Below, piece after piece: positions 7,146 through 37,802 of a stretch of DNA of 64,000 nt; position 1 is the first letter of the stretch; the number at the start of each line of letters is the position of its first letter. The DNA is from Ignavibacteria bacterium (GTDB taxonomy: Bacteria; Bacteroidota; Ignavibacteria; Ch128b). The DNA lies in NCBI GenBank assembly GCA_026415235.1, contig JAOAHM010000070.1, positions 826 through 64,825 of the forward strand. The letters are read 5' to 3'. Both the position numbers and the translations under genes were made by a program. Below the pieces are notes generated by a model, which was not told where the DNA came from, made no database searches, and saw only the letters and a program-made list of their open reading frames with translations.

Positions 7146-8048
7146 ATGTTACCTTCATACATTTCTGAGCTTAGCTTTCAAGAATTGAAAGAGCGCAGAG
7201 ATAAACTTTATGAATTGCTCGAAGCTTGTCGTTTATGTCCTAATGAATGTGGGGTTGATAGAAAAGTAAATGATAATGGAATTTGTCGAAGTGGTTATCT
7301 ACCGATTGTTTCAAGTTACTTTCCGCATTTTGGTGAAGAACCACCATTGGTAGGTAGATTTGGTTCAGGCACAGTATTTTTTTCGAATTGTAATTTAGAT
7401 TGCAAGTTCTGTCAAAACTATGATATTAGTCATTATGGAATTGGCAAAGAAATTTCGGTTGATGAACTTGCTTCAATAATGCTCTATCTTCAGAATCGTG
7501 GTTGTCATAATATAAATTTTGTAACTCCCACACACTTTACACCTCAAATTGTTGATGCTTTGATAATTGCTCGAGAGAGAGGATTAGAAATTCCTTTAGT
7601 TTATAATTGTGGTGGATATGAATCAGTTGAAACTTTGAAATTACTCGATAAGATAATTGACATTTATATGCCCGATATAAAATACTCATCAAATGAGAAT
7701 GCATTGAAATATTCTGGCGTTACAAATTATTGGGATGTAGTTCAAAGTGCATTAAAAGAAATGCATAAGCAAGTTGGTGATTTAGTAATAAACAAATCGG
7801 GTATTGCAAAACGAGGATTATTGATTAGACATTTGGTCTTACCAAACGATATTGCCGGTTCAAAAAAAGTACTTAATTTTATTGCCAATGAAATTTCGAA
7901 GAATTCTTATGTCAATATTATGGATCAATATCATCCAGCTTATCTTGCACGTACTTTTACTGAATTAAATCGTCCGATTACTAATTCTGAATATGAAGAA
8001 GTTTTATCTTACGCAAAGGAAATTGGTCTAAATCGTGGCTTTCTGTAA
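7146..8048 (+). CDS. Radical SAM protein, PflX / pyruvate-formate-lyase-activase-like
   Basis: CNLDCKFCQNY is a CxxxCxxC radical-SAM cluster motif. An extra N-terminal Cys cluster is present (CRLCPNECGVDR). 300 aa. Confidence 0.75.
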   Translation: MLPSYISELSFQELKERRDKLYELLEACRLCPNECGVDRKVNDNGICRSGYLPIVSSYFPHFGEEPPLVGRFGSGTVFFSNCNLDCKFCQNYDISHYGIGKEISVDELASIMLYLQNRGCHNINFVTPTHFTPQIVDALIIARERGLEIPLVYNCGGYESVETLKLLDKIIDIYMPDIKYSSNENALKYSGVTNYWDVVQSALKEMHKQVGDLVINKSGIAKRGLLIRHLVLPNDIAGSKKVLNFIANEISKNSYVNIMDQYHPAYLARTFTELNRPITNSEYEEVLSYAKEIGLNRGFL

Positions 8049-8179
8049 AGCTAAATTTGAAGAAATGGTAAGTTAATTCGAGATGAGAGATAATTATTTT
8101 GAAACTATTAAATATTTATTTAATAACACACCAAAATTTCTTTAAATAAATTAAATTACAGTTAAAGGGAGAAAATTTT

Positions 8180-9631
8180 TTGAAATCTGACCTTCGACAG
8201 CTTGGAAAAGAAACAGCAATTTATGGCATTTCAACTATCCTGAGTAGGTTCTTGAACTTTCTCTTAGTTCCATTTTACACAAATGTATTTACTCAAGCTG
8301 AATATGGAATTATTACGAATGTCTATGCATATATCGCATTTTTCTACATCATTTATTTGTACGGAATGGAATCGGCTTATTTCAAATTTGCTTCATCAAA
8401 AGAGTTAGGTAATGAGACTGAAACATTTAGCACAGCGTTTAATTCTGTATTTATCACATCACTAATTTTTTCGAGCATAATTTCTTTACTCAAAAATCCA
8501 ATTTCATCATTGTTCAGTCTTACTGAAGAGCATGAAATTATTGTTAATCTTGTTGCAGGTATACTATTCTTTGATGCAATATCAAATATAATTTTTGCGA
8601 GGCTAAGATTTCACAACAAAGCTATGAAGTTCGCTACTTTCAAGACGATAAACATAGTATTCACTGTTTTGTTGAACATTGTGTTAATCCTAAAATTAAA
8701 TTTTAGAATGGAAGGAGTTTTTATATCAAATATTGTTGCTTCATTTTTAACATTTATTTTAATTATACCTGACTTGATAAAATCTTATAAGTTGAAAATT
8801 GATAGAAGAATTTTAATAGGATTACTAAAGTTCGGATTGCCTTTTATACCTTCTGGTTTTGCAGCCATGGTAACAAATGTAATTGATAGACCCATTTTGT
8901 TAGCTTTAACTGATGCAAGTACTGTTGGAATTTATCAAGCTAACTACAAACTTGGTATATTCATGATGTTATATGTATCGATGTTTCAGTATGCCTGGCA
9001 ACCATTCTATTTAAAGAAAGCAAAAGAACAAAATGCTAAAGAATTATTTGCAAGGGTCTTTACATATTTTACAATTTTTGGTTTAACAATTTTCGTGTTT
9101 TTAACTTTATTTATTGAAGATATAATTAGGATTAGAGTATTTGGATATTATTTAATTGGAAAAAATTTCTGGAGTGGAGTTTATATCGTACCAATTGTTC
9201 TTTTAGGTTATTTGTTTAATGGATTTTATATAAATTTTGTCGCTGGATTACAGATTGAAAAGAAAACACAATACTTACCATTTGTAACTGGACTTGGTGC
9301 AATTGTGAATTTAGTTGCAAATTTTTTGTTAATACCTTTTCTTGGAATGCTTGGAGCTGCTTATGCAACTTTAGTTGCTTATTTATCAATGGCAGTTTAT
9401 CAATATAAACTCTCACAAAAGTTTTATGAAATTAAGTACGAATGGAGAAAAGTTTTACAGACAAGCGGAATTTCAATTTCAATTTTATTGACTTATTACA
9501 TTTTGAAAACTTTATTAATTGATTATTTAATTTATGTGAAGATTTTACTTTTTGTGATTTTTCTAATTCTTTTAAAGCTCTCGGGTTTAATTGAATTTCG
9601 TGGTTTATTTGATTTAAAAGTGAAAGAATAA
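8180..9631 (+). CDS. Polysaccharide biosynthesis protein / Wzx-like flippase (MOP superfamily)
   Basis: 483 aa and about 12-14 hydrophobic segments throughout. TTG start lies 9 nt after AAGGGAG. Confidence 0.8.
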   Translation: MKSDLRQLGKETAIYGISTILSRFLNFLLVPFYTNVFTQAEYGIITNVYAYIAFFYIIYLYGMESAYFKFASSKELGNETETFSTAFNSVFITSLIFSSIISLLKNPISSLFSLTEEHEIIVNLVAGILFFDAISNIIFARLRFHNKAMKFATFKTINIVFTVLLNIVLILKLNFRMEGVFISNIVASFLTFILIIPDLIKSYKLKIDRRILIGLLKFGLPFIPSGFAAMVTNVIDRPILLALTDASTVGIYQANYKLGIFMMLYVSMFQYAWQPFYLKKAKEQNAKELFARVFTYFTIFGLTIFVFLTLFIEDIIRIRVFGYYLIGKNFWSGVYIVPIVLLGYLFNGFYINFVAGLQIEKKTQYLPFVTGLGAIVNLVANFLLIPFLGMLGAAYATLVAYLSMAVYQYKLSQKFYEIKYEWRKVLQTSGISISILLTYYILKTLLIDYLIYVKILLFVIFLILLKLSGLIEFRGLFDLKVKE

Positions 9632-9656
9632 TACTTCGAATTTTTTCAGACAATCA

Positions 9657-10610
9657 TCATTTGTCTTTGTTGAAATAATCATAAATCATCCTTGCAGCTT
9701 TGGCTACTGCATTTTCAGCTTTGTTATCATGTGTCCACCTTGTATCGTTACTTTGATCTGCAAAAACTGAGATTATGAAATCACACTTTGGTGAATAAAC
9801 AATTCCAACATCAATTCTTGATTTATCAACCGCTCCTGTTTTATTTGCGACAATAATCTTTTCATCTTTTTTTAGTTCGTAATAAGGAAGAAGTTTTCTT
9901 ATCATTGACTCGTCTTGTTGATTTTTCATGATAGAAATAATCCAATTTGAATAAAAGCTATCTATCACTTGATTATAATATATCTTTTCGAGTAATAAAC
10001 TCATCTCACGCGGTGAAGAATATCCAAGCCCAAATCGTTTTGCTTCAGGAGTGTTTTTCTTTGTTGCATATGAAAATACTTTATTTAATAGTTTAGTATT
10101 GTACAACCCATATTGAACCATAGTTGAATTTACAAATTCTAATTTTTCATCATGTGTTTCACCTAATTGGTCAATAATGGCATTTGTTGCTGTATTATCG
10201 GAGAGAATAATCATTAGAGTTGCAGCATCAATTAATTTAATGTTTATGTCTCCTTCAAAGAATTGCAACACTCCAGCTCCACCAACTTTTGATGTATCTT
10301 TTATGGTTGTGTAACTAAAAGGATTCAACTCCCCATTTTTACATTTTGTGAAAAATGCTATTAAGATTGGTAATTTAATTACACTCGCAGTTGGAAATAA
10401 ACTATCAGCGTTGATAGAAATTATTTCTCCCGTTTTAAGATTTTTAGCAAACACTCCAATTGTTCCTGAATATTCTTCAGATAATTGAGCTAATTTTTTT
10501 TCCAAATAAATTTTTTCATTTACTTTTTGAGAAGTAGATGAATTAAACTTCGTAGTTGAACAAGATATTAAAATCAGAAATAAAAATAATAGAGAAAAAA
10601 TTTTTTTCAT
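9657..10610 (-). CDS. Class-A beta-lactamase-like serine hydrolase, probable lipoprotein
   Basis: Only minus-strand gene in the window. Signal peptide with a Cys (LFLILISCSTT). Motifs SxxK (TASVIK), SDN (ILSDNTATN) and KTG (ANKTGAV) occur in class-A order. An omega-loop ExxLN is not obvious. Confidence 0.75.
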   Translation of the reverse strand: MKKIFSLLFLFLILISCSTTKFNSSTSQKVNEKIYLEKKLAQLSEEYSGTIGVFAKNLKTGEIISINADSLFPTASVIKLPILIAFFTKCKNGELNPFSYTTIKDTSKVGGAGVLQFFEGDINIKLIDAATLMIILSDNTATNAIIDQLGETHDEKLEFVNSTMVQYGLYNTKLLNKVFSYATKKNTPEAKRFGLGYSSPREMSLLLEKIYYNQVIDSFYSNWIISIMKNQQDESMIRKLLPYYELKKDEKIIVANKTGAVDKSRIDVGIVYSPKCDFIISVFADQSNDTRWTHDNKAENAVAKAARMIYDYFNKDK

Positions 10611-10710: not shown

Positions 10711-10739
10711 TTGACATTAAAAAATAAAATTTATAAAAT
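10711..10739 (+). promoter_or_regulatory. Candidate sigma70-type promoter for the first T9SS cargo gene
   Basis: TTGACA (10711-10716), 17-nt spacer, TAAAAT (10734-10739), inside the 264-nt AT-rich divergent intergenic region. The AT-rich background makes chance matches likely. Confidence 0.3.
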
Positions 10740-17921: not shown

Positions 17922-17955
17922 TAGCTATATGACTTATACTAAAAATTTTAATTCA

Positions 17956-17996
17956 GTTAATTCCCCGTGCATTCATGTTGAGTGCACGGGATTAAC
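17956..17996 (+). other. Strong intergenic stem-loop between P1 and P2, with no U-tract
   Basis: GTTAAT(TC)CCCGTGCA pairs with TGCACGGGATTAAC: 14 bp with a 2-nt bulge. It can extend by 3 more pairs (TTC/GAG) to leave a 5-nt loop. The flanking sequence is A-rich (ACAAAAAG), not T-rich. Confidence 0.6.
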
Positions 17997-26169: not shown

Positions 26170-26208
26170 TTCAGAATCATTGAGATTGCACAATGGTTCG
26201 ATCAAAGT

Positions 26209-26232
26209 GAAAGCCCGTGAATTCGGGCTTTC
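26209..26232 (+). terminator. Rho-independent terminator after P2
   Basis: GAAAGCCCG (26209-26217), 6-nt loop, CGGGCTTTC (26224-26232), followed by GCTTTAATTAAT. Confidence 0.8.
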
Positions 26233-26257
26233 GCTTTAATTAATAAGATAAATTATT

Positions 26258-29107
26258 ATGGTAGTTTTCATGAAAAAATTTATCGTTTATTTTTTAATTG
26301 TCTTATCAAGCATTGCTTGGTCACAAGGTAAAGTATCTGAAAATCTTCATAACTATTTGAGTTCTATTAGAACTTCTGAACCGATAAAGATTTGGGTATA
26401 CTTTATTGATAAAGGCTCTGACTTGAATAAATATTTTATTAATCCAGAACTTGTAGTTAGTAAGCAATCCTTAGAAAGAAGAAAAAAGGTTTTACCTGAT
26501 GATAAACTTATAGATTATGATGATTTACCTGTTTCAAGCCAATATCTTAATCAATTAAAAGATTATGTTGTTGAATTCAAACATTGTTCAAAATGGTTTA
26601 ATGCAGTAAGTGCGTACGTTCTTCCTGAGCAAATTAATCAAATAGCATCTTTATCCTTTGTAAAAAAAGTTGATTTAGTCGAAAAGTTTAAGAAGAGATT
26701 AGAACCTATTGAAGAAAACAATTCAGAGTTTGATCAACAAAATAAATTAAATGTTACAGTTGAAGGTACAACTTTACTCAACTATGGTGCCTCGTTAACG
26801 CAAAATCAACAAATTAATGTTGTTGCGGTTCATAATACTGGAAATTATGGTCAGGGAGTTAGGATTTGCGTAATGGATGCTGGCTTTAACAGATTAACAC
26901 ATGAAGTTTTTCAAAACATGAATATAATTGCAACATGGGATTTCGTTAATAATAGACCTTATGTTGGTGATGGTCAAGGTGGTGCTGGTTCAGGAACTCA
27001 TGGAACTCAAACACTTTCAACAATTGGTGGTTTTAAGGAAGGCCAATTGATTGGACCAGCATTTGGTGCAACCTATATTCTTGCTAAAACAGAAAATACA
27101 GAAAGTGAAACACCAATTGAGATGGATAATTGGATACGAGCTCTTGAATGGGCAGATAGCATTGGAGTTGATGTTACAAGCACATCGCTTGGATATTTAG
27201 AATTCGATCCACCTTATCCAAGTTATAATTGGACACACATGGATGGAAACACAGTTCCTATCACGATTGCAGCTGACTTAGCAGTGAAAAGAGGAATTGT
27301 AGTAGTTAACTCAGCTGGAAATGAAGGTTATAATGCGACAAGAAATACTTTAGTCGCACCAGCTGATGGAGATAGTGTTATTGCAGTAGGTGCTGTTACT
27401 TCTTCAGGTGCAAGAGCATCATTTAGTTCGGTTGGTAATACAGTTGATGGAAGAATTAAACCTGATGTAATGGCAATGGGAAGTGGAGTTAGAGTTGCGA
27501 GTGCATATTCTGATAATGGATATACAAGTGCAAGTGGTACATCATTTTCATGCCCTCTTGCTGCTGGCGTTGCTGCTCTTATTTTATCAGAAAATCCTTC
27601 CTTAACCCCGATGCAGGTTCGTGATGCAATGAGAAATACAGCAAGTAATGCAAATTCACCAAATCGTGAAATGGGTTGGGGAATACTCAATGCTCTGCAA
27701 GCAGTTAATTACTATAATATAAATTTTTCTCACACTCCACCATTAGATACAACGAATGTGAATGGTCCATACAAAATAGCCGCAAAAATTACATCTCGAT
27801 TGGGAATTAATTCATCATCTGTAAAATTATTTTGGGGAAGAGGTACAATTACTGATTCAATTTTAATGATGGAAGCACCTGGTGATACATTCTATGCTTT
27901 TATTCCAGGAAATGGACAATCAGCAATTTATAAATATTATATTGAGGCAAGAACTGCAGATGGAAAAATTGTTAAAAGACATCCCAAAAGAGCACCACAA
28001 GAATTATTAGAATTCAAAGTTGGAAATTTTGCTTCTGTGAGTGTTAACTCTGGATGGAATTTAATGTCAGTTCCTGTCCAAACTCAAAACTTAACTATAA
28101 ATCAAGTTTTTCAAAATGTAACTTCATCTGCATATTATTTTGATGGAAGATATATCACTCGTGATACGATTGTACCTGGTTATGGATTTTGGTTGAAATT
28201 TAGTTCAAATAATAATTTTTCAATTCCAGGTAATCCTCTAACAGCAATCTCATTACCTGTTAAAGCTGGTTGGAATTTAATTGGCTCATTGAATACGACA
28301 ATTCCAGTTTATACTGTATCAAGTGTACCTCCCAATATTATCTCAACACCTTTTTATGGTTATAATGGTGGATATTTTAACTCGCCACAAATTGAAAGAG
28401 GAAAAGGATATTGGGTAAAAGTTCTTCAAGATGGTTATTTAATTTTGAACTCGTCAAATAAAAACAATTTGAATATTAACTTTGTTGATATTGAAACAAA
28501 TAAATTAGTCATCTCTGATAATTCAGGCAATAGAGGTGAATTAATTTTTTCATCAGTTGACTATGATCCAGAGTTACCACCAATTCCACCTTCAAATGCT
28601 TTTGATGTTCGTTTTCAAGATTCAAAATTAACTTCAACATCTGACGAAAATTTAATTTTACTACAAGGCATTAATTCACCATTAAATTTATTCTTGTCTC
28701 CGAAGTCAGATTTGTCTTTAGAGTTTTACCAACCACTTACTAATGAATTTATCACAAGAATTAAACCAGGTGAATCAAAAATTCTCGAATTAAATAATCT
28801 TAATTCGTTGAAAGTAAAGGTAGTTCGTGAGAAACTTGTGTATCAATTGTTCCAAAATTATCCTAATCCTTTTAATTCAACTACAAAAATAGATTTTGTA
28901 TTACCAGAAAATTCATTTGTAAAACTCATAGTTTATGATGTACTTGGTAATGAGGTATTAAGATTAATTAATCAAAATCTTGAAAGAGGTCATTACTCAA
29001 TTAACTTAGATATTCTTAAATTGAAAGAGCTTAGTTCTGGAATTTATTTTTATAAACTTCATGCAGGTAATTTTGTTCAAACAAAAAAAATGATTTATCT
29101 CAAATAA
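26258..29107 (+). CDS. T9SS-secreted subtilisin-family (S8) serine endopeptidase P3 with the shared C-terminal cassette
   Basis: Signal peptide starting at the ATG at 26270 (MKKFIVYFLIVLSSIAWSQ). I9-like propeptide. Catalytic residues: D (CVMDAGF), H (GTHGTQT), N (NSAGNEG), S (SGTSFSCPLAAG). C-terminus: NYPNPFNSTT...GIYFYKL...KKMIYLK. Confidence 0.92.
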   Translation: MVVFMKKFIVYFLIVLSSIAWSQGKVSENLHNYLSSIRTSEPIKIWVYFIDKGSDLNKYFINPELVVSKQSLERRKKVLPDDKLIDYDDLPVSSQYLNQLKDYVVEFKHCSKWFNAVSAYVLPEQINQIASLSFVKKVDLVEKFKKRLEPIEENNSEFDQQNKLNVTVEGTTLLNYGASLTQNQQINVVAVHNTGNYGQGVRICVMDAGFNRLTHEVFQNMNIIATWDFVNNRPYVGDGQGGAGSGTHGTQTLSTIGGFKEGQLIGPAFGATYILAKTENTESETPIEMDNWIRALEWADSIGVDVTSTSLGYLEFDPPYPSYNWTHMDGNTVPITIAADLAVKRGIVVVNSAGNEGYNATRNTLVAPADGDSVIAVGAVTSSGARASFSSVGNTVDGRIKPDVMAMGSGVRVASAYSDNGYTSASGTSFSCPLAAGVAALILSENPSLTPMQVRDAMRNTASNANSPNREMGWGILNALQAVNYYNINFSHTPPLDTTNVNGPYKIAAKITSRLGINSSSVKLFWGRGTITDSILMMEAPGDTFYAFIPGNGQSAIYKYYIEARTADGKIVKRHPKRAPQELLEFKVGNFASVSVNSGWNLMSVPVQTQNLTINQVFQNVTSSAYYFDGRYITRDTIVPGYGFWLKFSSNNNFSIPGNPLTAISLPVKAGWNLIGSLNTTIPVYTVSSVPPNIISTPFYGYNGGYFNSPQIERGKGYWVKVLQDGYLILNSSNKNNLNINFVDIETNKLVISDNSGNRGELIFSSVDYDPELPPIPPSNAFDVRFQDSKLTSTSDENLILLQGINSPLNLFLSPKSDLSLEFYQPLTNEFITRIKPGESKILELNNLNSLKVKVVREKLVYQLFQNYPNPFNSTTKIDFVLPENSFVKLIVYDVLGNEVLRLINQNLERGHYSINLDILKLKELSSGIYFYKLHAGNFVQTKKMIYLK
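28052..29104 (+). other. Shared C-terminal cassette, copy in P3
   Basis: Twin module at 28052-28447. ELPPIPPSNAFDVRF at 28571-28615. CTD at 28841-29104. Confidence 0.85.
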
Positions 29108-29125
29108 TAGTCCATAGAGGTTAAT

Positions 29126-31138
29126 ATGAAAAAATTTATTCTTTCACAAATCCTTGCATTAGTACTTTTATCTTTTGTAAATCTATATTCTCAATCTCCA
29201 GAAATAATTCAACTTATTAATAAGGTTAATAAAGATTCTTTAACATTATATCTTCGCCAATTATCAGGTGATACAAGTTGTGTAATTGGTGGAGCTCCAT
29301 ATACGATTGTATCAAGACATAAAAATCAACCTGGTAATGATAAAGCGGGTCAATATATTTATGAAAAATTCCAATCCTGGGGTTATCAAGTTCAATACGA
29401 GAGTTTTAGTTCAACAGGAAAAAATGTGATTGCCACGAAGCCGGGATTATTTGATAGTCAAAAATATTTCATCGTTTGTGCTCACTATGATGACATGCCT
29501 TCTGGTACAACTGCACCTGGCGCAGATGATAATGCAAGTGGTACTGCAACAGTCTTAGAATTAGCACGAGTATTTGCTCAACATAATTTTAATTATACAA
29601 TTAAGTTTATGTGTTTTGATGAAGAAGAACAAGGTTTAGTCGGCTCTAATTATTACGCAACACAAGCAAGAAATAGAAACGATTCAATTATTGGTGTAAT
29701 AAATCTTGATATGACTGCCTACGATGCAAATAACGATGGTATGGTTGATGTTCATTCAAATAGTGTTGCAAACACTGCTCAAATTGCAAATGAGTGGATT
29801 AATAATATTAGTCAATATGGTATCGCTCTAACTCCAAGAACGGTTGCTTCACAACCTTACAGTGATCATTATAGTTTTCAACAAAAAAATTATGGAGCTA
29901 TTCTTGTTATTGAGTATGATTTGGAATTCAATCCAAGATATCATACTGTAAATGATAAAATTCAATACTTGAATATGAATTATGCTCATAAGATTGCTCA
30001 AGTCACAGCTGCGACTGCTGCTGAATATATTCAAATTGTTAATTCTAATACTGCTACATTCTTAACGAATTCAGGTTGGAACTTAATTTCCATTCCAATT
30101 AATCCAGCAGATGGGCGAAAATCGGTTTTATTCCCTACAGCAATCTCCTATGCTTATGCATACGATGGTTCCTATGTTATGCGAGATACTTTGCAAGTTG
30201 GTAGAGGGTACTGGCTCAAATTTAATTCAAGTCAAAACCATTCAATTTCTGGTCAAACGATTACTAACTTACAAATACCATTGAAACAAGGATGGAATTT
30301 AATTGGAACACTAAACGGAGTTATACCAGTAAATTCAATTACAACTAATCCACCAAATATCATCGCAAGTTTATTTTTCGAATACAATGGTGGATATTCT
30401 CAAGCTCAGCAACTTGAAAAAGGAAAAGGTTATTGGGTAAAGAGTTCTCAAAATGGAATTCTAAATCTTTCTTTAACAGGAAAATCAATTGCATCGAGTA
30501 ACTCACAATTAGTTAATTCAAAATATATATTATTATTTGAAACGGATAATGCGACTCAGAAATTATATCTCACCGAAGAAGTGTTGAATAAAGAATTTTA
30601 TGAAATGCCACCTGAACCACCCACCGGAGTTTTCGATGTAAGGTTTGCTGATAATTATTTAGTCAACAATCTTTTTACTGATGAATGTTTAATTAAAATA
30701 TCTTCGAATGGTAAACCAATCAATGTAAATTTGTTGAGTAGTAACGAAAGTGAACAAATTCAACTTAATTATTATTCCAATGGTAACTCTTATAAAATAG
30801 TTGTATCAAATAATCAAAAATTTGCTCTTCCAAGTGATGTTAGTTACATCAAAGTAAAAAAACTTTCTCAACCAAAAGAGTTTGTTTTGTCACAAAATTA
30901 TCCCAACCCATTCAATCCAAAAACAACTATTAACTTTAAATTACCAGAAGATGCAAAAGTTACATTAAAGGTTTATGATATTCATGGAAGAATAGTTGAA
31001 ACACTAATTGATGAGAATAAAAACGCTGGTAACCACTCAATCAATTTCGATGGTTCTAAGTATTCAAGTGGAATTTATTTTTATGAACTAAGTGCAGGTA
31101 AATACAAAGCAATCAAAAAAATGATGTTAGTTAAATGA
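29126..31138 (+). CDS. T9SS-secreted M28-family aminopeptidase P4 with the shared C-terminal cassette
   Basis: Signal peptide. M28 zinc-ligand motifs: CAHYDD, GADDNASGTATVLELAR, FDEEEQGLVGS, INLDM, YHTVND. It starts 18 nt after the P3 stop. Por CTD at the end. Confidence 0.9.
   Translation: MKKFILSQILALVLLSFVNLYSQSPEIIQLINKVNKDSLTLYLRQLSGDTSCVIGGAPYTIVSRHKNQPGNDKAGQYIYEKFQSWGYQVQYESFSSTGKNVIATKPGLFDSQKYFIVCAHYDDMPSGTTAPGADDNASGTATVLELARVFAQHNFNYTIKFMCFDEEEQGLVGSNYYATQARNRNDSIIGVINLDMTAYDANNDGMVDVHSNSVANTAQIANEWINNISQYGIALTPRTVASQPYSDHYSFQQKNYGAILVIEYDLEFNPRYHTVNDKIQYLNMNYAHKIAQVTAATAAEYIQIVNSNTATFLTNSGWNLISIPINPADGRKSVLFPTAISYAYAYDGSYVMRDTLQVGRGYWLKFNSSQNHSISGQTITNLQIPLKQGWNLIGTLNGVIPVNSITTNPPNIIASLFFEYNGGYSQAQQLEKGKGYWVKSSQNGILNLSLTGKSIASSNSQLVNSKYILLFETDNATQKLYLTEEVLNKEFYEMPPEPPTGVFDVRFADNYLVNNLFTDECLIKISSNGKPINVNLLSSNESEQIQLNYYSNGNSYKIVVSNNQKFALPSDVSYIKVKKLSQPKEFVLSQNYPNPFNPKTTINFKLPEDAKVTLKVYDIHGRIVETLIDENKNAGNHSINFDGSKYSSGIYFYELSAGKYKAIKKMMLVK
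30074..31135 (+). other. Shared C-terminal cassette, copy in P4
   Basis: Twin module at 30074-30469. EMPPEPPTGVFDVRF at 30602-30646. CTD at 30881-31135. Confidence 0.85.
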
Positions 31139-31171
31139 TCAAAGTAATTTTTATTAAACAATGGTGCTTCT

Positions 31172-34100
31172 ATGAAAAAAGTAACTTTATTTTTCGGTGT
31201 TTTATTTATTCTATTAAATCTTGGGTTAGCTCAATCGAATAAATATGCAAAGATTAAACTTAATCTTTCTGGTATAAGCGATTGGGAAAAATTACTCATC
31301 TCAGGTGTTGATATTCATTGTCAACTTGATAAGAAAAATTTGGATAAACCTGAGATTTGGGTTTCCTATGATGAAATGAATGAATTGAAAAAAGTAGGTT
31401 TAAGTTTTGAAATTATTATTTCTGATTGGGAAAATTACTACAAACAACAAAAGCAGAAAGATTTTGCTGATGAACAATTTTACCGAGAGAAATTTGGTAT
31501 TCAAGGTTTTCATTTTGGTTCAATGGGTGGATTTTACACTTTGAACGAGATTGTGGCAGAATTAGACTCAATGAAGTTACTCTATCCAAATTTAATAACA
31601 GAGAAAGTTTCGATTGGTAATTCGATAGAAAATAGACCAATATGGATGGTTAAGATTTCAGATAATCCAGATTTAAATGAAAATGAACCACAGGTTTTAT
31701 ATACAGCACTTCATCATGCTCGTGAGCCGCAAGGAATGATGACTGTGATTTATTACATGTATTATCTTTTAGAAAGATATGGCATTGATCCAGAAGTTAC
31801 TTACTTAGTGAATAATCGTGAAATTTATTTCATTCCTGTAGTAAATCCTGATGGATATGAATATAACAGAACGACAAACCCAAACGGCGGAGGAATGTGG
31901 AGAAAAAATAGACGAAATAATGGAGGTAGTTTTGGCGTTGATTTAAATAGAAATTATGGTCCTATGGCTTATTGGGATGCACCGAACGGTGGTTCAAGTA
32001 CATCTCCAAGTTCTGAAACTTATCGAGGTACAGCACCATTTAGTGAACCTGAAACAGCAGCAATCCGAGATTTTCTTTTAACTAAGGGAATCAAAGCTTG
32101 CTTAAATTATCATACTTATAGTAATCTTCTCATTTACCCTTACGGTGCGTTGAGTCGAGAAACTCCAGATTCGCTTATCTTTAGAGAATTTGCTCGAGAT
32201 ATGACAGCTTATAATGGTTATGTATATGGAACAGATATGCAAACAGTTGGTTACTCAACTCGTGGTAACTCAGATGATTATATGTATGATGGAGAACCTG
32301 TAAGCATTAGACCAAAAATTTTCGCAATGACTCCTGAAGTTGGTAGTTCAACTGATGGTTTCTGGCCTAACCAATCTCGTATCTATCCTTTAGCTATTGA
32401 AAATTTAAGACCAAATATTTATTACACATGGATTGCAGGTGAATATCCAAGCATTGCTTCAAAAACATTACAATCATCCAAAGGATATTTTGGACGAGGT
32501 GATACTATTAAGTTTATTGTAGAATTAAAGAATAAAGGTTTAGGTCATGCCTACAATGTGGGATTGAATTTTGAATCACTTTCGCCACATTTAACGATTA
32601 TAAGTAATGCTAACTTCTTCTTTGATACATTACTTTCAAGGTCAAGCAAGTCAAATCAAACAAACCCAGTTTTAATTAAAATATCGAATACAGTTCAAAA
32701 TGGTTCAAAACACCGTGTTGTGGCTAAAATTAGTTTAAATGGAACAGTTTTAATTTCAGATACAACCACAATCCTTGTGGGACAACCAACAGTTATAGTG
32801 TCTGACAATTTTGAAAGTGGTTTATCAAATTGGCAAACAACAAATACTTGGGGATTAACTCAAACTCAATATTATTCTCCAAACAATTCATTGACTGATT
32901 CACCTTCAGGAAATTATCCTAACAATGCAAATACTTATGTCAATCTAAATACTTTAATTGATTTAACTCAATCGAATGCAGCCACACTTGAATTTTGGAC
33001 TAAATGGGATATCGAAACAGGTTGGGATTTTGCTCAAGTTCGAATTTCAACTAATAATGGTTCAACTTGGATTCCATTGAGAGGTAAATATACTAAGAAT
33101 GGTTCAGGCAAAGGAGTTCAACCTGCAAATGAACCTGGTTATGATGGAACTCAAACTACATGGGTTAAAGAAGAAATGGATTTAACACCATACTTAGGTA
33201 AAATTTTAAGATTGCAATTTCTGTTAAAGAGTGATGGCTCTGTTCAAAAAGATGGTTGGTATATCGATGATGTAACGGTTAAAAGTTATCAAGTCACTTC
33301 AGGTTTAATTACATCAACATTTAATACTAATGCAGGATGGAATTTAATTTCGGTTCCTTTAATCGTTGAAGATTTTAGAAAATCAATTCTCTTTCCAACT
33401 TCTGTTTCTTACGCTTATTCATTTGACAATGGTTACATTGCTAAGGATACTCTGAAAAATGGCGAAGGATATTGGTTGAAATTCAATTCATCACAAGAAC
33501 ATACTCTAAACGGTTTAGATTTACCAAGTTTAAATATAAATCTTAAATCAGGTTGGAATCTGATTGGAAGTGTTAATGGAAATGTTTCTGTTTCATCATT
33601 AACCACAAATCCACCAAACATCATTCAAGGACAAATCTTTGGTTATAATAATGGATATCAACCAGTTAATTTACTGGAAAAAGGTAAAGCATATTGGGTT
33701 AAAAGTTCTCAACCAGGTACACTGACTTTGAACACAACTTTTTTGAAAGAGAGTGAAACTGTTAATGTCAAAAACGCCAATTTAATTTTGTTAAATGGAG
33801 ATGGACAACAATCTAAATTGCGCATCACTGATGATATAAACGAGCATCGTTTTGAGCTACCACCAGTTCCGCCATCAAAAATTTTCGATGCAAGATTTAA
33901 TGATAACTCATTTAATTCACATTTTGAGAATGAAGCAATAATAAATCTTAGTGGTGTTGTTCCTCCAATTAAAATCACTCTTTCAGAAAATTTAAATTCC
34001 TTATTTAGAATTACTGATTTATTTGATGGAAAGTTTGTTGATGAAGTGTTAAGCTCAAATAAGGAAGTGATAATAAATCAAAATATTAATCAATTAAAAA

Positions 34101-34387
34101 TTACTCGTTTAGAAAAACTTGTTTATACATTTGATTTAAGCCAAAATTATCCAAATCCATTCAATCCAAGTACCTTCATTAATTTTTCACTTCAATCCAG
34201 AACTAAAGTGAAGTTAATTGTTTATGATGTACTTGGAAATGAAGTTGCAACTTTAATTGATAATGAATTAGAAGAAGGGAAACATACCGTTAAATTTGAT
34301 GGAAGTCAGTTAGCATCTGGTGTTTACTTTTATAAACTAATAACTGACAAATTTACAGATATCAAGAAGATGGTTTTAATGAAATAA
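31172..34387 (+). CDS. T9SS-secreted M14-family zinc carboxypeptidase P5 with a MAM-like domain and the shared C-terminal cassette
   Basis: Signal peptide. M14 motifs: LHHAREPQG (HxxE), [22 protein letters not shown]/Ig-like region follows. The jelly-roll-like domain reads [11 protein letters not shown]...[16 protein letters not shown]...DGWYIDDV. Por CTD at the end. Confidence 0.9.
33335..34384 (+). other. Shared C-terminal cassette, copy in P5
   Basis: Twin module at 33335-33730. [15 protein letters not shown] at 33854-33898. CTD at 34124-34384. Confidence 0.85.
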
Positions 34388-34390
34388 TTC

Positions 34391-34411
34391 AAGCCCCAGT
34401 TTTTGGGGCTT
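34391..34411 (+). terminator. Rho-independent terminator after P5
   Basis: AAGCCCCA (34391-34398), loop GTTTT, TGGGGCTT (34404-34411), followed by TATTATTTT. Confidence 0.8.
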
Positions 34412-34452
34412 TATTATTTTAAATTATTCTACACCAATAGAGGTATTCTGCC

Positions 34453-36876
34453 ATGAGGAAAATTTTTATTATTCTTTTACTTTTAACGGTAAATAGTCTT
34501 GCACAATTTCCAAATATTCGAGTAAGCCAACCATCAAGCACCGACCCAAATGAAACAAGCATTGCTATCAATCCGCTTGATACAAATAATTTAGTCGCTG
34601 GTGCAAACATTAGATATTATTACTATTCAACCGATGGTGGGTACACTTGGACACAAGGTAATTTAACATCACCACTTGGAGTTTGGGGTGATCCATGCGT
34701 TGTATTTGATTTGAATGGTCATTGTTATTTTGGCCATCTCTCAAATCCATCAAGCGGTGGATACTGGATTGATCGAATTGTAGTTCAAAAATCCACAAAC
34801 AAGGGAATTACTTGGTCAAGTGGTGTTGGAATTGGTTACAATCCACCAACTCGTAATCAAGATAAAGAATGGTTAGCAGTAGATTGGACCAACAGCCCTT
34901 ACAGAAATTATATCTATGTTGCTTGGACTGAATTTGATTCTTATGGCAGCTCCAATCCTCTCGACTCCACAAGAATATTATTCTCTCGTTCGACGGATGG
35001 AGGTTTAACTTGGTCTGCTCCCGTTAGAGTAAGTGATAAAGGTGGAGATTGTATTGATGAAGATAATACAGTTGAGGGAGCAGTGCCAGCAGTTGGACCA
35101 AATGGTGAGGTATATTTAGCCTGGGCTGGTCCACTTGGGTTGGTTTTTGACAAGTCTACAAATGGTGGTCTAACTTGGGGAGTTGATAAAGTTATTACTT
35201 CAATTCCAGGTGGATGGGATTTTAGTGTTCCTGGGATTTATCGCTGTAATGGATTGCCCATAACTGCTTGTGATATAAGTAATTCACCTTATCGAGGAAA
35301 TATTTATGTAAATTGGTCGGATCAAAGAAATGGTACAAATAATACGGATATCTTTTTTGTGAAATCAACGGATGGAGGAAATACTTGGAGTGCTCCCAAA
35401 AAGGTTAATCAAGATAATACCCAGACCCATCAATTTTTTACTTGGATGACGGTTGATCCTGCCACAGGTTATATTTACATCGTTTATTATGATAGACGAA
35501 ATTACACCGACAACCGCACTGATGTGTATCTGGCACGCTCCACTGATGGTGGTGAAACATTTACGGAATTCAAAATTTCGCAAACTCCTTTCACTCCAAC
35601 TGCTTCGGTTTTCTTTGGAGACTATACTGGAATTGCTGCATTGAATGGAAAAGTTTACCCAATTTGGACACGAATGGATAACGGACAAAGGAGCGTTTGG
35701 ATGGCAATTTTTCAGGATACAATCCGTGCTCAACCAACTTCCACTTTTTACCTAAGCGATGGTTGGAATTTACTCTCTGTTCCACTGAAGAGACAAAACA
35801 TGTTCTATAAAGATTTATTCCCTGGTTCAAATTCATTTGCATTCACTTATGATAATGGATATCAGAGAGAAGATACACTAAAAGTGGGGACAGGATATTG
35901 GTTGAAATTTGTAGTCCCTCAAAATGTCACACTTACTGGAACTCAACAAAATCAAATTTCTATCAATTTGAAGAGTGGATGGAATTTGATTGGTGGATTA
36001 AATGGAATCATTCCAACAAATTCTGTTCAGACCAATCCACCAGGAATTTTAGCTACACCATTTTATGAGTATAATCAAGGATATTCAGTAGCAAATCAAA
36101 TAGTAAAGGGGAAAGGATATTGGATTAAAGCGAACGCACCTGGTCAATTAATTCTAAGTATTTCAGGATTGACGAAAGGAAATGTTAACGAAAACATAAA
36201 TTATGATTACTTTGGAAGAATTGAATTTAGCTCTGATTTTTACAAATCCAAAGTCTATATTTCAGATAAAGTTATTGACAAATCATTTTTTGAATTACCA
36301 CCAAAACCACCTTCGAATATTTTTGATGTTAGATTTGATGATGAAACAAATTTAATTTATTTAGGTGAAGAAAAATTAATCACAGTTCAAACTGAAAATT
36401 TACCTGTGAAAATACAACTTAAAGGTAATGGTTCAATAAATTCTGTTTTAATCAAGTTCTTGTCTGGTAAAAATGTTGAGTTAAAATCAGACGAACAATA
36501 TTTAATTAGTAATCGTGATGAACTAAATTTCATCATATCAACGAAAAAAAATAGTCAGTCAACTGAAATATCACCAACTAACTTTAAGATGTCTGAAGTA
36601 TTTCCAAATCCTTTCAACTCTGTTGCTAAGATAAGATTTTATATTCCACGCAATGAAAATACAAACGATTACTTGGTTGAATTTCGATTTTATGATTTAC
36701 TTGGAAGATTAATTTCAACTGATTTTATTACTGTAAAATCAGGTTATCATGAATACACTTTTGATGCAAGTAGATTTAATCTAACTTCTGGTTTGTATTT
36801 TTGCGAGTTGATCGTACAAGATTTAACGACAAAAAAATTCTATCGTGAACTAAAGAAGATGAATTTTATTAAATGA
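34453..36876 (+). CDS. T9SS-secreted BNR/Asp-box six-bladed propeller protein P6 (sialidase-superfamily fold) with the shared C-terminal cassette
   Basis: Signal peptide (LLLLTVNSLAQF). Asp-boxes: STDGGYTW, STNKGITW, SRSTDGGLTW, KSTNGGLTW, KSTDGGNTW, ARSTDGGETF. The N-terminal part parallels P1 (FPNIRVS versus YPNIRVW). The Por CTD is divergent (VFPNPFNSVAKIRF...GLYFCEL...KKMNFIK). Confidence 0.9.
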   Translation: MRKIFIILLLLTVNSLAQFPNIRVSQPSSTDPNETSIAINPLDTNNLVAGANIRYYYYSTDGGYTWTQGNLTSPLGVWGDPCVVFDLNGHCYFGHLSNPSSGGYWIDRIVVQKSTNKGITWSSGVGIGYNPPTRNQDKEWLAVDWTNSPYRNYIYVAWTEFDSYGSSNPLDSTRILFSRSTDGGLTWSAPVRVSDKGGDCIDEDNTVEGAVPAVGPNGEVYLAWAGPLGLVFDKSTNGGLTWGVDKVITSIPGGWDFSVPGIYRCNGLPITACDISNSPYRGNIYVNWSDQRNGTNNTDIFFVKSTDGGNTWSAPKKVNQDNTQTHQFFTWMTVDPATGYIYIVYYDRRNYTDNRTDVYLARSTDGGETFTEFKISQTPFTPTASVFFGDYTGIAALNGKVYPIWTRMDNGQRSVWMAIFQDTIRAQPTSTFYLSDGWNLLSVPLKRQNMFYKDLFPGSNSFAFTYDNGYQREDTLKVGTGYWLKFVVPQNVTLTGTQQNQISINLKSGWNLIGGLNGIIPTNSVQTNPPGILATPFYEYNQGYSVANQIVKGKGYWIKANAPGQLILSISGLTKGNVNENINYDYFGRIEFSSDFYKSKVYISDKVIDKSFFELPPKPPSNIFDVRFDDETNLIYLGEEKLITVQTENLPVKIQLKGNGSINSVLIKFLSGKNVELKSDEQYLISNRDELNFIISTKKNSQSTEISPTNFKMSEVFPNPFNSVAKIRFYIPRNENTNDYLVEFRFYDLLGRLISTDFITVKSGYHEYTFDASRFNLTSGLYFCELIVQDLTTKKFYRELKKMNFIK
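35761..36873 (+). other. Shared C-terminal cassette, copy in P6
   Basis: Twin module at 35761-36156. ELPPKPPSNIFDVRF at 36292-36336. CTD at 36583-36873. Confidence 0.85.
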
Positions 36877-37802
36877 AGATATTATTTTTTGGTACACCCG
36901 AATTTGCAATTCCATCTCTCAAAATATTACTTGAAAATAATTATGAAATTGTTGCTGTTATAACAGTTCCAGATAAAGAAAAAGGTAGAGGATTAAAACT
37001 TGAACCATCACCAGTTAAATCTTTTGCATTAGAGAATAATTTAAAAGTCATTCAACCACAAAATTTGAAGGATGAAAAATTTTTAGATGAACTAAAAAAC
37101 TTAGAACCAGATTTAGGAGTTATAGTCGCCTACCGAATTTTACCTGTACAAGTTTATTCAATTCCAAAATTCGGTACATTCAATCTTCATGCATCGTTGT
37201 TACCTAAGTATAGAGGTGCAGCACCAATACAATGGGCATTAATTAATGGTGAAAAGGTAACTGGTGTTACAACTTTTTTCCTTCAAGAAAAAGTAGATAC
37301 TGGCAATATCATTTTACAACGAGAAGTTGAAATTAACGAAGATGATGATTTCAAAACATTGCACGATAAACTTTCAATTGTAGGTGCAGAATTAGTACTT
37401 GAAACAGTCAAACGCATTGAAGCAGGAAATTTTAAAACTCAACCACAAAATGATGCAGAAGCAACTTTAGCTCCTAAAATCACAAAAGAAATTTGTAAGA
37501 TTAATTGGAACCAACCAGCAATTAAAATCCATAATCTTGTTCGTGGCTTATCACCAATTCCAGCTGCTTTTACAATTTTTAATAGCAAGACTTTCAAAAT
37601 TTATAAAACGAAAGTAACTGAACTCGACTCAAACAACTCACCAGGCACAATTGAAATAATTAATGATGAATTGTTAGTAAACACTTCTGATAAAAAAATT
37701 TCAATTCTTGAAATCCAACCTGAATCAAGAAAAAGAATGAGTATAAAAGAATTCTTGTTGGGTTACAAAAATTTGTTTAGCACTGAATCTAAATTCGATT
37801 AG
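36873..37802 (+). CDS. fmt: Methionyl-tRNA formyltransferase
   Basis: 309 aa. Motifs ILFFGTPEFAIPSL, HASLLPKYRGAAPIQWA. The ATG overlaps the P6 stop (ATGA). Confidence 0.95.
   Translation: MKILFFGTPEFAIPSLKILLENNYEIVAVITVPDKEKGRGLKLEPSPVKSFALENNLKVIQPQNLKDEKFLDELKNLEPDLGVIVAYRILPVQVYSIPKFGTFNLHASLLPKYRGAAPIQWALINGEKVTGVTTFFLQEKVDTGNIILQREVEINEDDDFKTLHDKLSIVGAELVLETVKRIEAGNFKTQPQNDAEATLAPKITKEICKINWNQPAIKIHNLVRGLSPIPAAFTIFNSKTFKIYKTKVTELDSNNSPGTIEIINDELLVNTSDKKISILEIQPESRKRMSIKEFLLGYKNLFSTESKFD

Follow-up and report, generated by a model that had tools for sequence, protein, structure and literature searches.

Three adjacent genes for putatively secreted peptidases, here called P3, P4 and P5, lie on a 64,000-nt stretch of DNA (the window) from an Ignavibacteria bacterium, corresponding to C16:826-64825 of a 2.14-Mb, 97-contig assembly with 31.8% G+C. 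The closest public loci belong to metagenome-assembled genomes (MAGs) labelled Ignavibacterium or Ignavibacteriaceae, and a genome search placed six further genomes in the same genus. The three plus-strand open reading frames (ORFs; 26258-29107, 29126-31138 and 31172-34387) are separated by only 18 nt (P3/P4) and 33 nt (P4/P5), which confirms the co-directional arrangement and spacing described in an initial sequence-only reading of this DNA. They form part of a larger island, P1 to P6-fmt, in which every gene points in the same direction. Coordinates of the main features are collected in Table 1.

Table 1. Features of the peptidase locus, in window coordinates.
Feature	Position	Strand	Basis and remarks
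P3, predicted secreted S8 subtilase, 945 aa	26270-29107	+	Pfam, subtilisin alignment, public gene call
P4, predicted secreted M28 aminopeptidase, 670 aa	29126-31138	+	Pfam, PDB relatives, orthologue motifs
P5, predicted secreted M14A carboxypeptidase, 1071 aa	31172-34387	+	Pfam, carboxypeptidase T alignment
Cassette, P4 copy	30038-31135	+	blastp, 26-sequence alignment, AlphaFold2 model
Cassette, other copies	P3 28031-29104; P5 33311-34384; P1 16788-17918; P6 35710-36873	+	blastp
Upstream hairpin, terminator-like	26204-26237 (core 26209-26232)	+	AAAGTGAAAGCCCG-TGAATT-CGGGCTTTCGCTTT, after the P2 stop, weak T-tail
Downstream intrinsic terminator	34391-34421 (hairpin 34391-34411)	+	AAGCCCCAG-TTT-TTGGGGCTT then TATTATTTTA; called by the scan, 9 bp
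Near-consensus sigma-70-type promoter (TTGACA, 17 nt, TAAAAT)	10711-10739	+	Own scan, 11/12; upstream of P1
P6 and fmt, downstream neighbours	34453-37802	+	Pfam: BNR/Asp-box in P6, which also ends in the cassette

Catalytic heads of P3, P4 and P5

P3 would be 949 aa long if translation began at 26258; the ATG at 26270 (MKKFIV...) is the more likely start, since the public gene call on this contig is a protein of 945 aa. The protein matches Peptidase_S8 (PF00082, E = 9.7e-45, 153.5 bits against a cut-off of 21.8) and consists of a signal peptide, an unannotated pro-region of ~170 aa, the S8 domain, a connector of ~100 aa and a C-terminal cassette made up of domain A, domain B and the C-terminal sorting domain (CTD) of a type IX secretion system (T9SS). 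Neither the pro-region nor the connector has a Pfam match at E<=1. Catalytic residues D203, H244, N351 and S425 (945-aa numbering) lie within the motifs DAG, HGT, SAGN and GTSxxxP, which align to subtilisin DY/Carlsberg and are conserved in 6 orthologues. The Asp-His-Ser triad proposed earlier is intact when compared with subtilisin DY, and its order, together with an oxyanion-hole Asn inside a Peptidase_S8 fold, agrees with the MEROPS definition of family S8.

P4, whose start is preceded by an AGAGG Shine-Dalgarno sequence within the 18-nt spacer, matches Peptidase_M28 (PF04389, E = 1.1e-37, 130 bits) and is built of a signal peptide, the M28 domain (aa 100-297) and the cassette (aa ~305-670). 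Its predicted metal ligands are H120, D135, E168, D195 and H273, with E167 as the catalytic residue, and the motifs AHxD, GADDxASG, EEQGLVGS, LDM and YHT are invariant in 7 orthologues. Their mapping onto AAP numbering follows what is generally established for that enzyme. The best relatives in the PDB are 2ek8, to which P4 was aligned, followed by the leucyl aminopeptidases 1amp/1rtq; YwaD is also among them. A co-catalytic two-zinc site and a catalytic Glu beside a Glu ligand, as in MEROPS family M28, agree with the aminopeptidase assignment of the sequence-only reading, all active-site residues being intact.

P5 carries a strong Peptidase_M14 match (PF00246, E = 1.9e-69, 234.9 bits) and an InhA-like MAM domain (8e-20). 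A signal peptide and a pro-segment-like N-terminus precede the M14 domain (aa 127-411), which is followed by ~180 unannotated aa, the MAM domain (aa 591-704) and the cassette (aa 714-1071); the N-terminus and the middle region have no Pfam matches at E<=1. Zinc ligands are H182, E185 and H314, substrate residues R247, N259, R260 and Y370, and the catalytic residue E389, which corresponds to the M14A signature of MEROPS (HxxE...H; Arg127, Asn144 and Arg145; Tyr248; Glu270, carboxypeptidase A (CPA) numbering). In the best PDB match, carboxypeptidase T (6e-60), the segments HHARE, WRKNR, DLNRNY, HTYS, SDDY and FAMTPE all align. The active-site motifs are intact, as expected of the M14 carboxypeptidase originally called, and are conserved in 7 orthologues. 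The genome has one more M14+MAM carboxypeptidase paralogue with the cassette, 1328 aa long and encoded on the minus strand at C9:81602-85600, within another dense cluster of CTD proteins (C9:79-91 kb).

Closer alignment was used to look for inactive catalytic sites, and the sites of P3, P4 and P5 all proved intact; judged by these residues, no pseudo-enzyme is apparent among the three, and each is predicted to be catalytically competent. The suggested split into an endopeptidase, an aminopeptidase and a carboxypeptidase follows from the closest characterised relatives, subtilisin, leucyl aminopeptidase of the Aeromonas/Vibrio type and carboxypeptidase T, for which internal cleavage, N-terminal trimming and C-terminal trimming are established. 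Genome-wide, P4 is the only T9SS M28 protein, P3 one of two T9SS S8 proteins and P5 one of two T9SS M14 proteins, and with so few T9SS members of each family in the genome, adjacency of the three by chance is unlikely.

T9SS targeting and the shared cassette

Each of the three proteins begins with a hydrophobic, signal-peptide-like N-terminus ending in ...SQ or ...AQ and carries Por_Secre_tail (Pfam PF18962) above cut-off and TIGR04183 at 39-44 bits (NCBIfam cut-off, 23). The same genome encodes SprA/Sov (979 bits) and a PorU sortase (1010 bits), both above their curated cut-offs, as well as at least 72-95 CTD-bearing ORFs; our check of the secretion machinery covered SprA and PorU. P3, P4 and P5 thereby combine a signal peptide, a C-terminal sorting domain and the presence of machinery genes, the hallmarks of type-A T9SS cargo. 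These matches bear out the T9SS CTDs proposed for all three proteins, and we can reasonably infer their export by this route. Signal peptides of P3, P4, P5 and their orthologues mostly end in ...(A/S)Q(S/G/E/T), a pattern that suggests mature N-termini beginning with Gln. Such termini resemble the 'Q-rule' reported for substrates of Bacteroidetes signal peptidase I (PMC5837995).

The C-terminal ~360 aa are common to P3, P4 and P5 (38-46% identity, E from 1e-67 to 1e-97 by blastp). Within this cassette, domain A (~140 aa) contains a twin GWNL...GYW[LV]K repeat, domain B is a beta domain of ~125 aa with the motif ELPPxPP...FDVRF (window 30509-30886 in the P4 copy), and the T9SS CTD makes up the last ~85 aa. 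An AlphaFold2 model built on the 26-sequence alignment resolves the cassette into three beta domains (mean pLDDT 85.5), and domain B modelled alone is all-beta (pLDDT 90.9). Neither domain A nor domain B has a Pfam match at E<=1. Foldseek searches against the PDB returned no named fold, either for the whole cassette (generic Ig/FN3 strings alone, TM<=0.21) or for domain B alone (best E 0.097, TM<=0.32). Conservation among orthologues ranks head > domain A > CTD > domain B, domain B being the fastest-evolving part of the cassette with 28-55% identity; between paralogues, identities are ~55-59% for domain A, ~22-28% for domain B and ~50-58% for the CTDs.

The sequence-only reading had the three peptidases sharing one C-terminal cassette and CTD, which the alignments support; a cassette specific to the trio is not what we find, as it also ends P1, P6 and at least 6 other proteins of the genome; among the heads of these others are an HExxH protein, a beta-propeller-like head and the second M14+MAM paralogue. 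Searching databases with the P4 cassette recovered at least 624 protein clusters, mostly from Ignavibacteria, none with a Pfam domain over the cassette and with heads of the M28, M14, S8, M1, M6, MXAN_6640-type, BNR/sortilin, FG-GAP and PKD kinds. A role of the cassette as a peptidase-specific co-localisation device fails on its occurrence behind BNR/sortilin-like, adhesin-like, FG-GAP-like and other heads, and stoichiometric co-localisation through it has no specific support. Its distribution makes the cassette a pre-CTD module used generally by T9SS cargo of this class, one that does not single out peptidases.

Other parts of the island proteins are also related to one another. By blastp, P3 aa 488-589, the connector behind the S8 domain, match P1 aa 494-594 with 45% identity over 104 aa, and P1 (10875-17921) has an N-terminal BNR head that is 37.5% identical to the head of P6. 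These homologies point to domain shuffling inside the island.

Synteny, hairpins and promoters

The gene order S8-M28-(M1)-M14-BNR-fmt is conserved in seven genomes from two genera (G000-G005, and G007 with inserts), and gaps within the array are <=37 nt in all of them. The source genome (G000) and its closest relative, G003, have S8-M28-M14-BNR-fmt; four of the five other genus members checked (G001, G002, G004 and G005) have S8-M28-M1-M14-BNR-fmt, in which a 930-aa T9SS gene of the aminopeptidase N type with the same cassette stands between M28 and M14 (7211-10000 in locus L013). Its active-site motifs, GGMEN (GxMEN) and HEFAH-X18-E (HExxH-X18-E), are intact. M1 is cleanly absent from the window, where the 33-nt spacer at 31139-31171 is left, and from G003. 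With G007 as the root, the tree built from the M28 and M14 heads places G000 and G003 among M1-bearing genomes, which makes loss of M1 the most parsimonious explanation; most likely, then, the trio is a four-peptidase array reduced in this lineage. Recombination between the M28 and M1 cassettes was considered as the route of loss and rejected, as domains A and B of P4 group with those of M28 orthologues and no chimera was found. A separate T9SS M1 elsewhere in the genome is 37% identical and lacks domains A and B.

Hairpins divide the island into P1 / P2 / P3-P4-P5 / P6-fmt. P3-P4-P5 is the sole hairpin-free multi-gene block among the cassette-bearing genes, and P6-fmt is likewise without an internal hairpin. 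The upstream hairpin is the strongest 40-nt fold of the island (-23 kcal/mol), and its position and core sequence are kept in G001, G003, G004, G005 and the sister-genus genome G007; it went uncalled in our terminator consensus scan because its tail (GCTTTAATTAAT / GCTTTAATT) is not a canonical T-tract. The downstream terminator, which can be read as a hairpin from the minus strand too, is kept in G001-G004; its place in G005 is taken by a hairpin with another sequence but again a T-tract, and this replacement of the stem with retention of the T-tract argues for selection on the structure. Both framing hairpins of the sequence-only reading are thus real and conserved in the genus; its description of them as the only two clear terminators of the island needs correction, given that the upstream one was not called by the scan and that the P1/P2 junction has a third strong hairpin (17952-17991, -20.9 kcal/mol), which is GC-rich and lacks a T-tract. 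Within 26258-34387 no hairpin combines a T-tract with a folding energy of -13 kcal/mol or lower, and Rfam at E<=0.1 over 10000-38000 gave no match at all, and so no known riboswitch or leader.

Two side observations concern these junctions. The longest-ORF call for P2, starting at 17929, runs through the 17952-17991 hairpin. An inverted repeat, GAATCATTG-N8-CAATGGTTC (26174-26199), sits immediately behind the P2 stop and close ahead of the upstream hairpin. G004 and G005 retain it, and G001 has a different small hairpin in its place; it may serve as a further terminator stem or as a site for protein binding.

Apart from the promoter at 10711-10739, no strong promoter-like site was found upstream of an island gene; this promoter lies in the divergent region that P1 has in common with a class-A beta-lactamase-like gene (9657-10610, minus strand). 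For P6 the best sigma-70-like site scores 8/12, with the same shortage of promoter room as for P3, and our scan found no site of >=8/12 upstream of P5. No sigma-54-type or Bacteroidetes-type (TAnnTTTG) promoter was seen upstream of P3 in an inspection by eye only. P3-P4-P5 have the same strand, short gaps, no internal terminator and an order conserved across genomes, as expected of an operon; a promoter of its own upstream of the first gene was not found for P3, which is weak negative evidence given that the promoter consensus of Ignavibacteria is uncharacterised. This shortage leaves two readings, in which either the trio has an unrecognised promoter or transcription of the island starts at P1 and the hairpins terminate it only partially; expression of P3-P4-P5 may depend on read-through from P1/P2.

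Downstream of the trio, P6 and fmt (the methionyl-tRNA formyltransferase gene) overlap by 4 nt (window 36873-36876), and the overlap is kept in all relatives examined from two genera (L013 15706-15709; L014 2840-2843; L015-L019). It is an odd arrangement, in which a surface protein is translationally coupled to a housekeeping gene.

Interpretation and comparison with known systems

In our view P3-P4-P5 probably constitute a conserved, co-transcribed block for extracellular proteolysis that is specific to the lineage of Ignavibacterium and its sister genus. The three genes are most likely transcribed together because of the short gaps between them, the lack of an internal hairpin and the two bounding hairpins conserved in the genus. 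Each enzyme would be exported by Sec through its signal peptide and then passed through the T9SS by its type-A CTD, and its head would be held outside by the common two-domain beta 'stalk' (A + B), which is shared with many T9SS cargo of the class. Acting jointly, the three could break extracellular protein down to peptides and trim them from both ends, feeding a proteolytic heterotroph. In this account the domain content, intact active sites, CTDs, SprA and PorU genes, synteny and conserved hairpins are observed, whereas co-transcription of the trio, its enzymatic activity, its passage through the T9SS, its retention at the surface and its part in nutrition are predicted.

Several points weigh against such a block. 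Genus members have just 25-37 nt between the upstream hairpin and the start of P3; the highest-scoring sigma-70-like match ahead of P3 reaches 8/12 and overlaps that hairpin, which leaves the block with no visible promoter of its own. A 9/12 promoter-like site in the 3' end of P3 (29021-29050) could drive P4 separately. In G007 the order is S8-M28-sortilin/BNR-M14-GH5-BNR-fmt, which means that the block does not consist strictly of peptidase genes. The trio is not retained in more distant Ignavibacteria: their M28 homologues (34-51% identity) have no S8 neighbours, and only one of them (L040) has an M14 gene nearby. Two cassette-bearing peptidases of other lineages likewise adjoin non-peptidase T9SS cargo, and from both observations we take the trio to be confined to the genus or family. 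Finally, to our knowledge T9SS function has no experimental demonstration in Ignavibacteria.

The shortage of promoters bears most directly on the possibility, which we hold to be real but clearly the less probable, that the whole island from P1 to P6-fmt is one transcription unit driven by the P1 promoter, its hairpins serving as partial terminators, attenuators or mRNA-stabilising structures and the level of the trio being set by read-through at 26204-26237. The 11/12 site ahead of P1 is the sole near-consensus promoter; the intervals from the upstream hairpin to P3 and from the 34391 hairpin to P6 offer neither room for a promoter nor a match to one; no canonical T-tract follows the upstream hairpin; the island genes all point the same way; and fmt, which P6 overlaps, must be expressed. 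The canonical T-tract of the 34391 hairpin, however, makes it resemble a full terminator; G007 has ~150 nt between the upstream hairpin and the S8 start, room enough for a promoter; and in organisms whose promoters are uncharacterised a non-consensus promoter may have escaped the scan. Domains A and B might also be more than a passive stalk, namely a common docking or anchoring device that joins peptidases, BNR/sortilin-like proteins and giant P1-type proteins into a multi-enzyme surface layer, a T9SS-dependent analogue of the cellulosome for proteins, with the promoter-less, hairpin-bounded peptidase block dosed against the scaffold-like P1/P2 genes by regulated terminator read-through; we offer this as a speculation with little probability.

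The wide use of the cassette raises the question of whether adjacency is merely a by-product of duplication and cassette-mediated shuffling of T9SS cargo, the peptidases being expressed independently and without coordination. Five adjacent genes with unrelated heads and at least 6 others in the genome carry the cassette, the content of the array varies (M1 present or absent; sortilin/BNR and GH5 inserted in G007), T9SS cargo clusters with unrelated cargo in other lineages, and the P1/P3 connectors and P1/P6 heads are homologous. This explanation nevertheless seems unlikely. Although domain B has diverged to 28-55% identity, two genera share the S8-M28-...-M14 order with gaps of <=37 nt; the hairpins on either side are conserved; spacers of 18 and 33 nt are too short for separate intergenic promoters; and no chimeric cassette marks recent shuffling at the M1 deletion. 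Still less do we expect the trio to serve a non-nutritional purpose, namely maturation of other T9SS cargo such as the giant P1 and P2, remodelling of the cell surface or attack on competing cells. Large adhesin-like or BNR surface proteins do flank it, and the secreted T9SS peptidases of Porphyromonas, an M14 carboxypeptidase among them, act in the processing of other proteins at the surface, but the closest characterised relatives of P3-P5 are broad-specificity enzymes of the digestive type (subtilisin, leucyl aminopeptidase and carboxypeptidase T), the array of most genus members also has a general M1 peptidase of the aminopeptidase N type, and Ignavibacteria have repeatedly been inferred to be protein degraders. 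Ignavibacteria MAGs in anammox granules highly express extracellular subtilisin-like peptidases and metallopeptidases (PMC5460018), and members of the class are predicted protein feeders (PMC7509429). In the parts covered of the peptidase supplement of Lawson et al. 2017 (PMC5460018), the top-expressed peptidase of the Ignavibacteriaceae MAG CHB2 is a T9SS M1 with signal peptidase I as its neighbour, and no consecutive S8/M28/M14 loci appear for this MAG.

Ignavibacteria are widespread, mostly uncultured heterotrophs. Life on protein has repeatedly been proposed for them in bioreactors, sediments and aquifers, and for that lifestyle the conserved and compact endo + amino (+ amino) + carboxy array provides a testable genetic unit, as well as a marker locus for metatranscriptomics. 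The locus also gives a view of T9SS cargo outside the classical Bacteroidia, with hairpin-delimited blocks and an undescribed two-domain pre-CTD cassette. Its practical yield is modest, the enzyme families and T9SS protease clusters being well known and the unusual cassette not specific to the trio, and by its gene content it appears to be a sensible, fairly ordinary protein-feeding gene cluster.

The closest solved heads are carboxypeptidase T of Thermoactinomyces vulgaris (1obr, 3v38), the leucyl aminopeptidase of Aeromonas/Vibrio proteolytica (1amp, 1rtq) and subtilisin Carlsberg/DY (1bh6), to which all catalytic and metal-binding residues of P3-P5 align. These relatives are single-domain secreted enzymes with pro-regions from Gram-positive bacteria or Proteobacteria, whereas P3-P5 are T9SS cargo with 360-650 extra C-terminal residues (including MAM in P5). 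Among T9SS systems, Porphyromonas gingivalis likewise places an endopeptidase and a carboxypeptidase outside the cell as type-A cargo (gingipains and the M14 enzyme CPG70), and a PorU-type sortase is common to it and the source genome. Unlike P3-P5, the P. gingivalis genes are dispersed, the endopeptidases are C25 cysteine enzymes and the twin-repeat/ELPP cassette is absent. A conserved array that unites endo, amino and carboxy activities with a shared pre-CTD cassette is not known to us from Flavobacterium columnare or F. johnsoniae. Both belong to the same phylum-level group and use multiple T9SS-dependent secreted peptidases for extracellular proteolysis (PMC9936825).

The closest known arrangement is that of the KLIKK arrays of Tannerella forsythia (karilysin, mirolysin, forsilysin, mirolase and miropsins; PMC4404884). 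Both are lineage-specific clusters of secreted proteases of different catalytic classes, and in both a signal peptide, an N-terminal profragment and a catalytic domain are followed by a C-terminal extension with a related T9SS CTD (PMC4404884). KLIKK proteases are all endopeptidases, whereas P3-P5 comprise one endopeptidase and two (in relatives, three) exopeptidases. In place of a protease-specific variable region, the extension of P3-P5 contains two conserved, foldable beta domains shared with non-proteases; the KLIKK CTDs are near-identical and end in KLIKK, those of P3-P5 are ~50-58% identical and end in KKMxLxK; and, unlike the KLIKK genes, those of P3-P5 lie 18-33 nt apart between bounding hairpins. 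On these sequence features P3-P5 is an analogue of a KLIKK-type array and not a member of that group.

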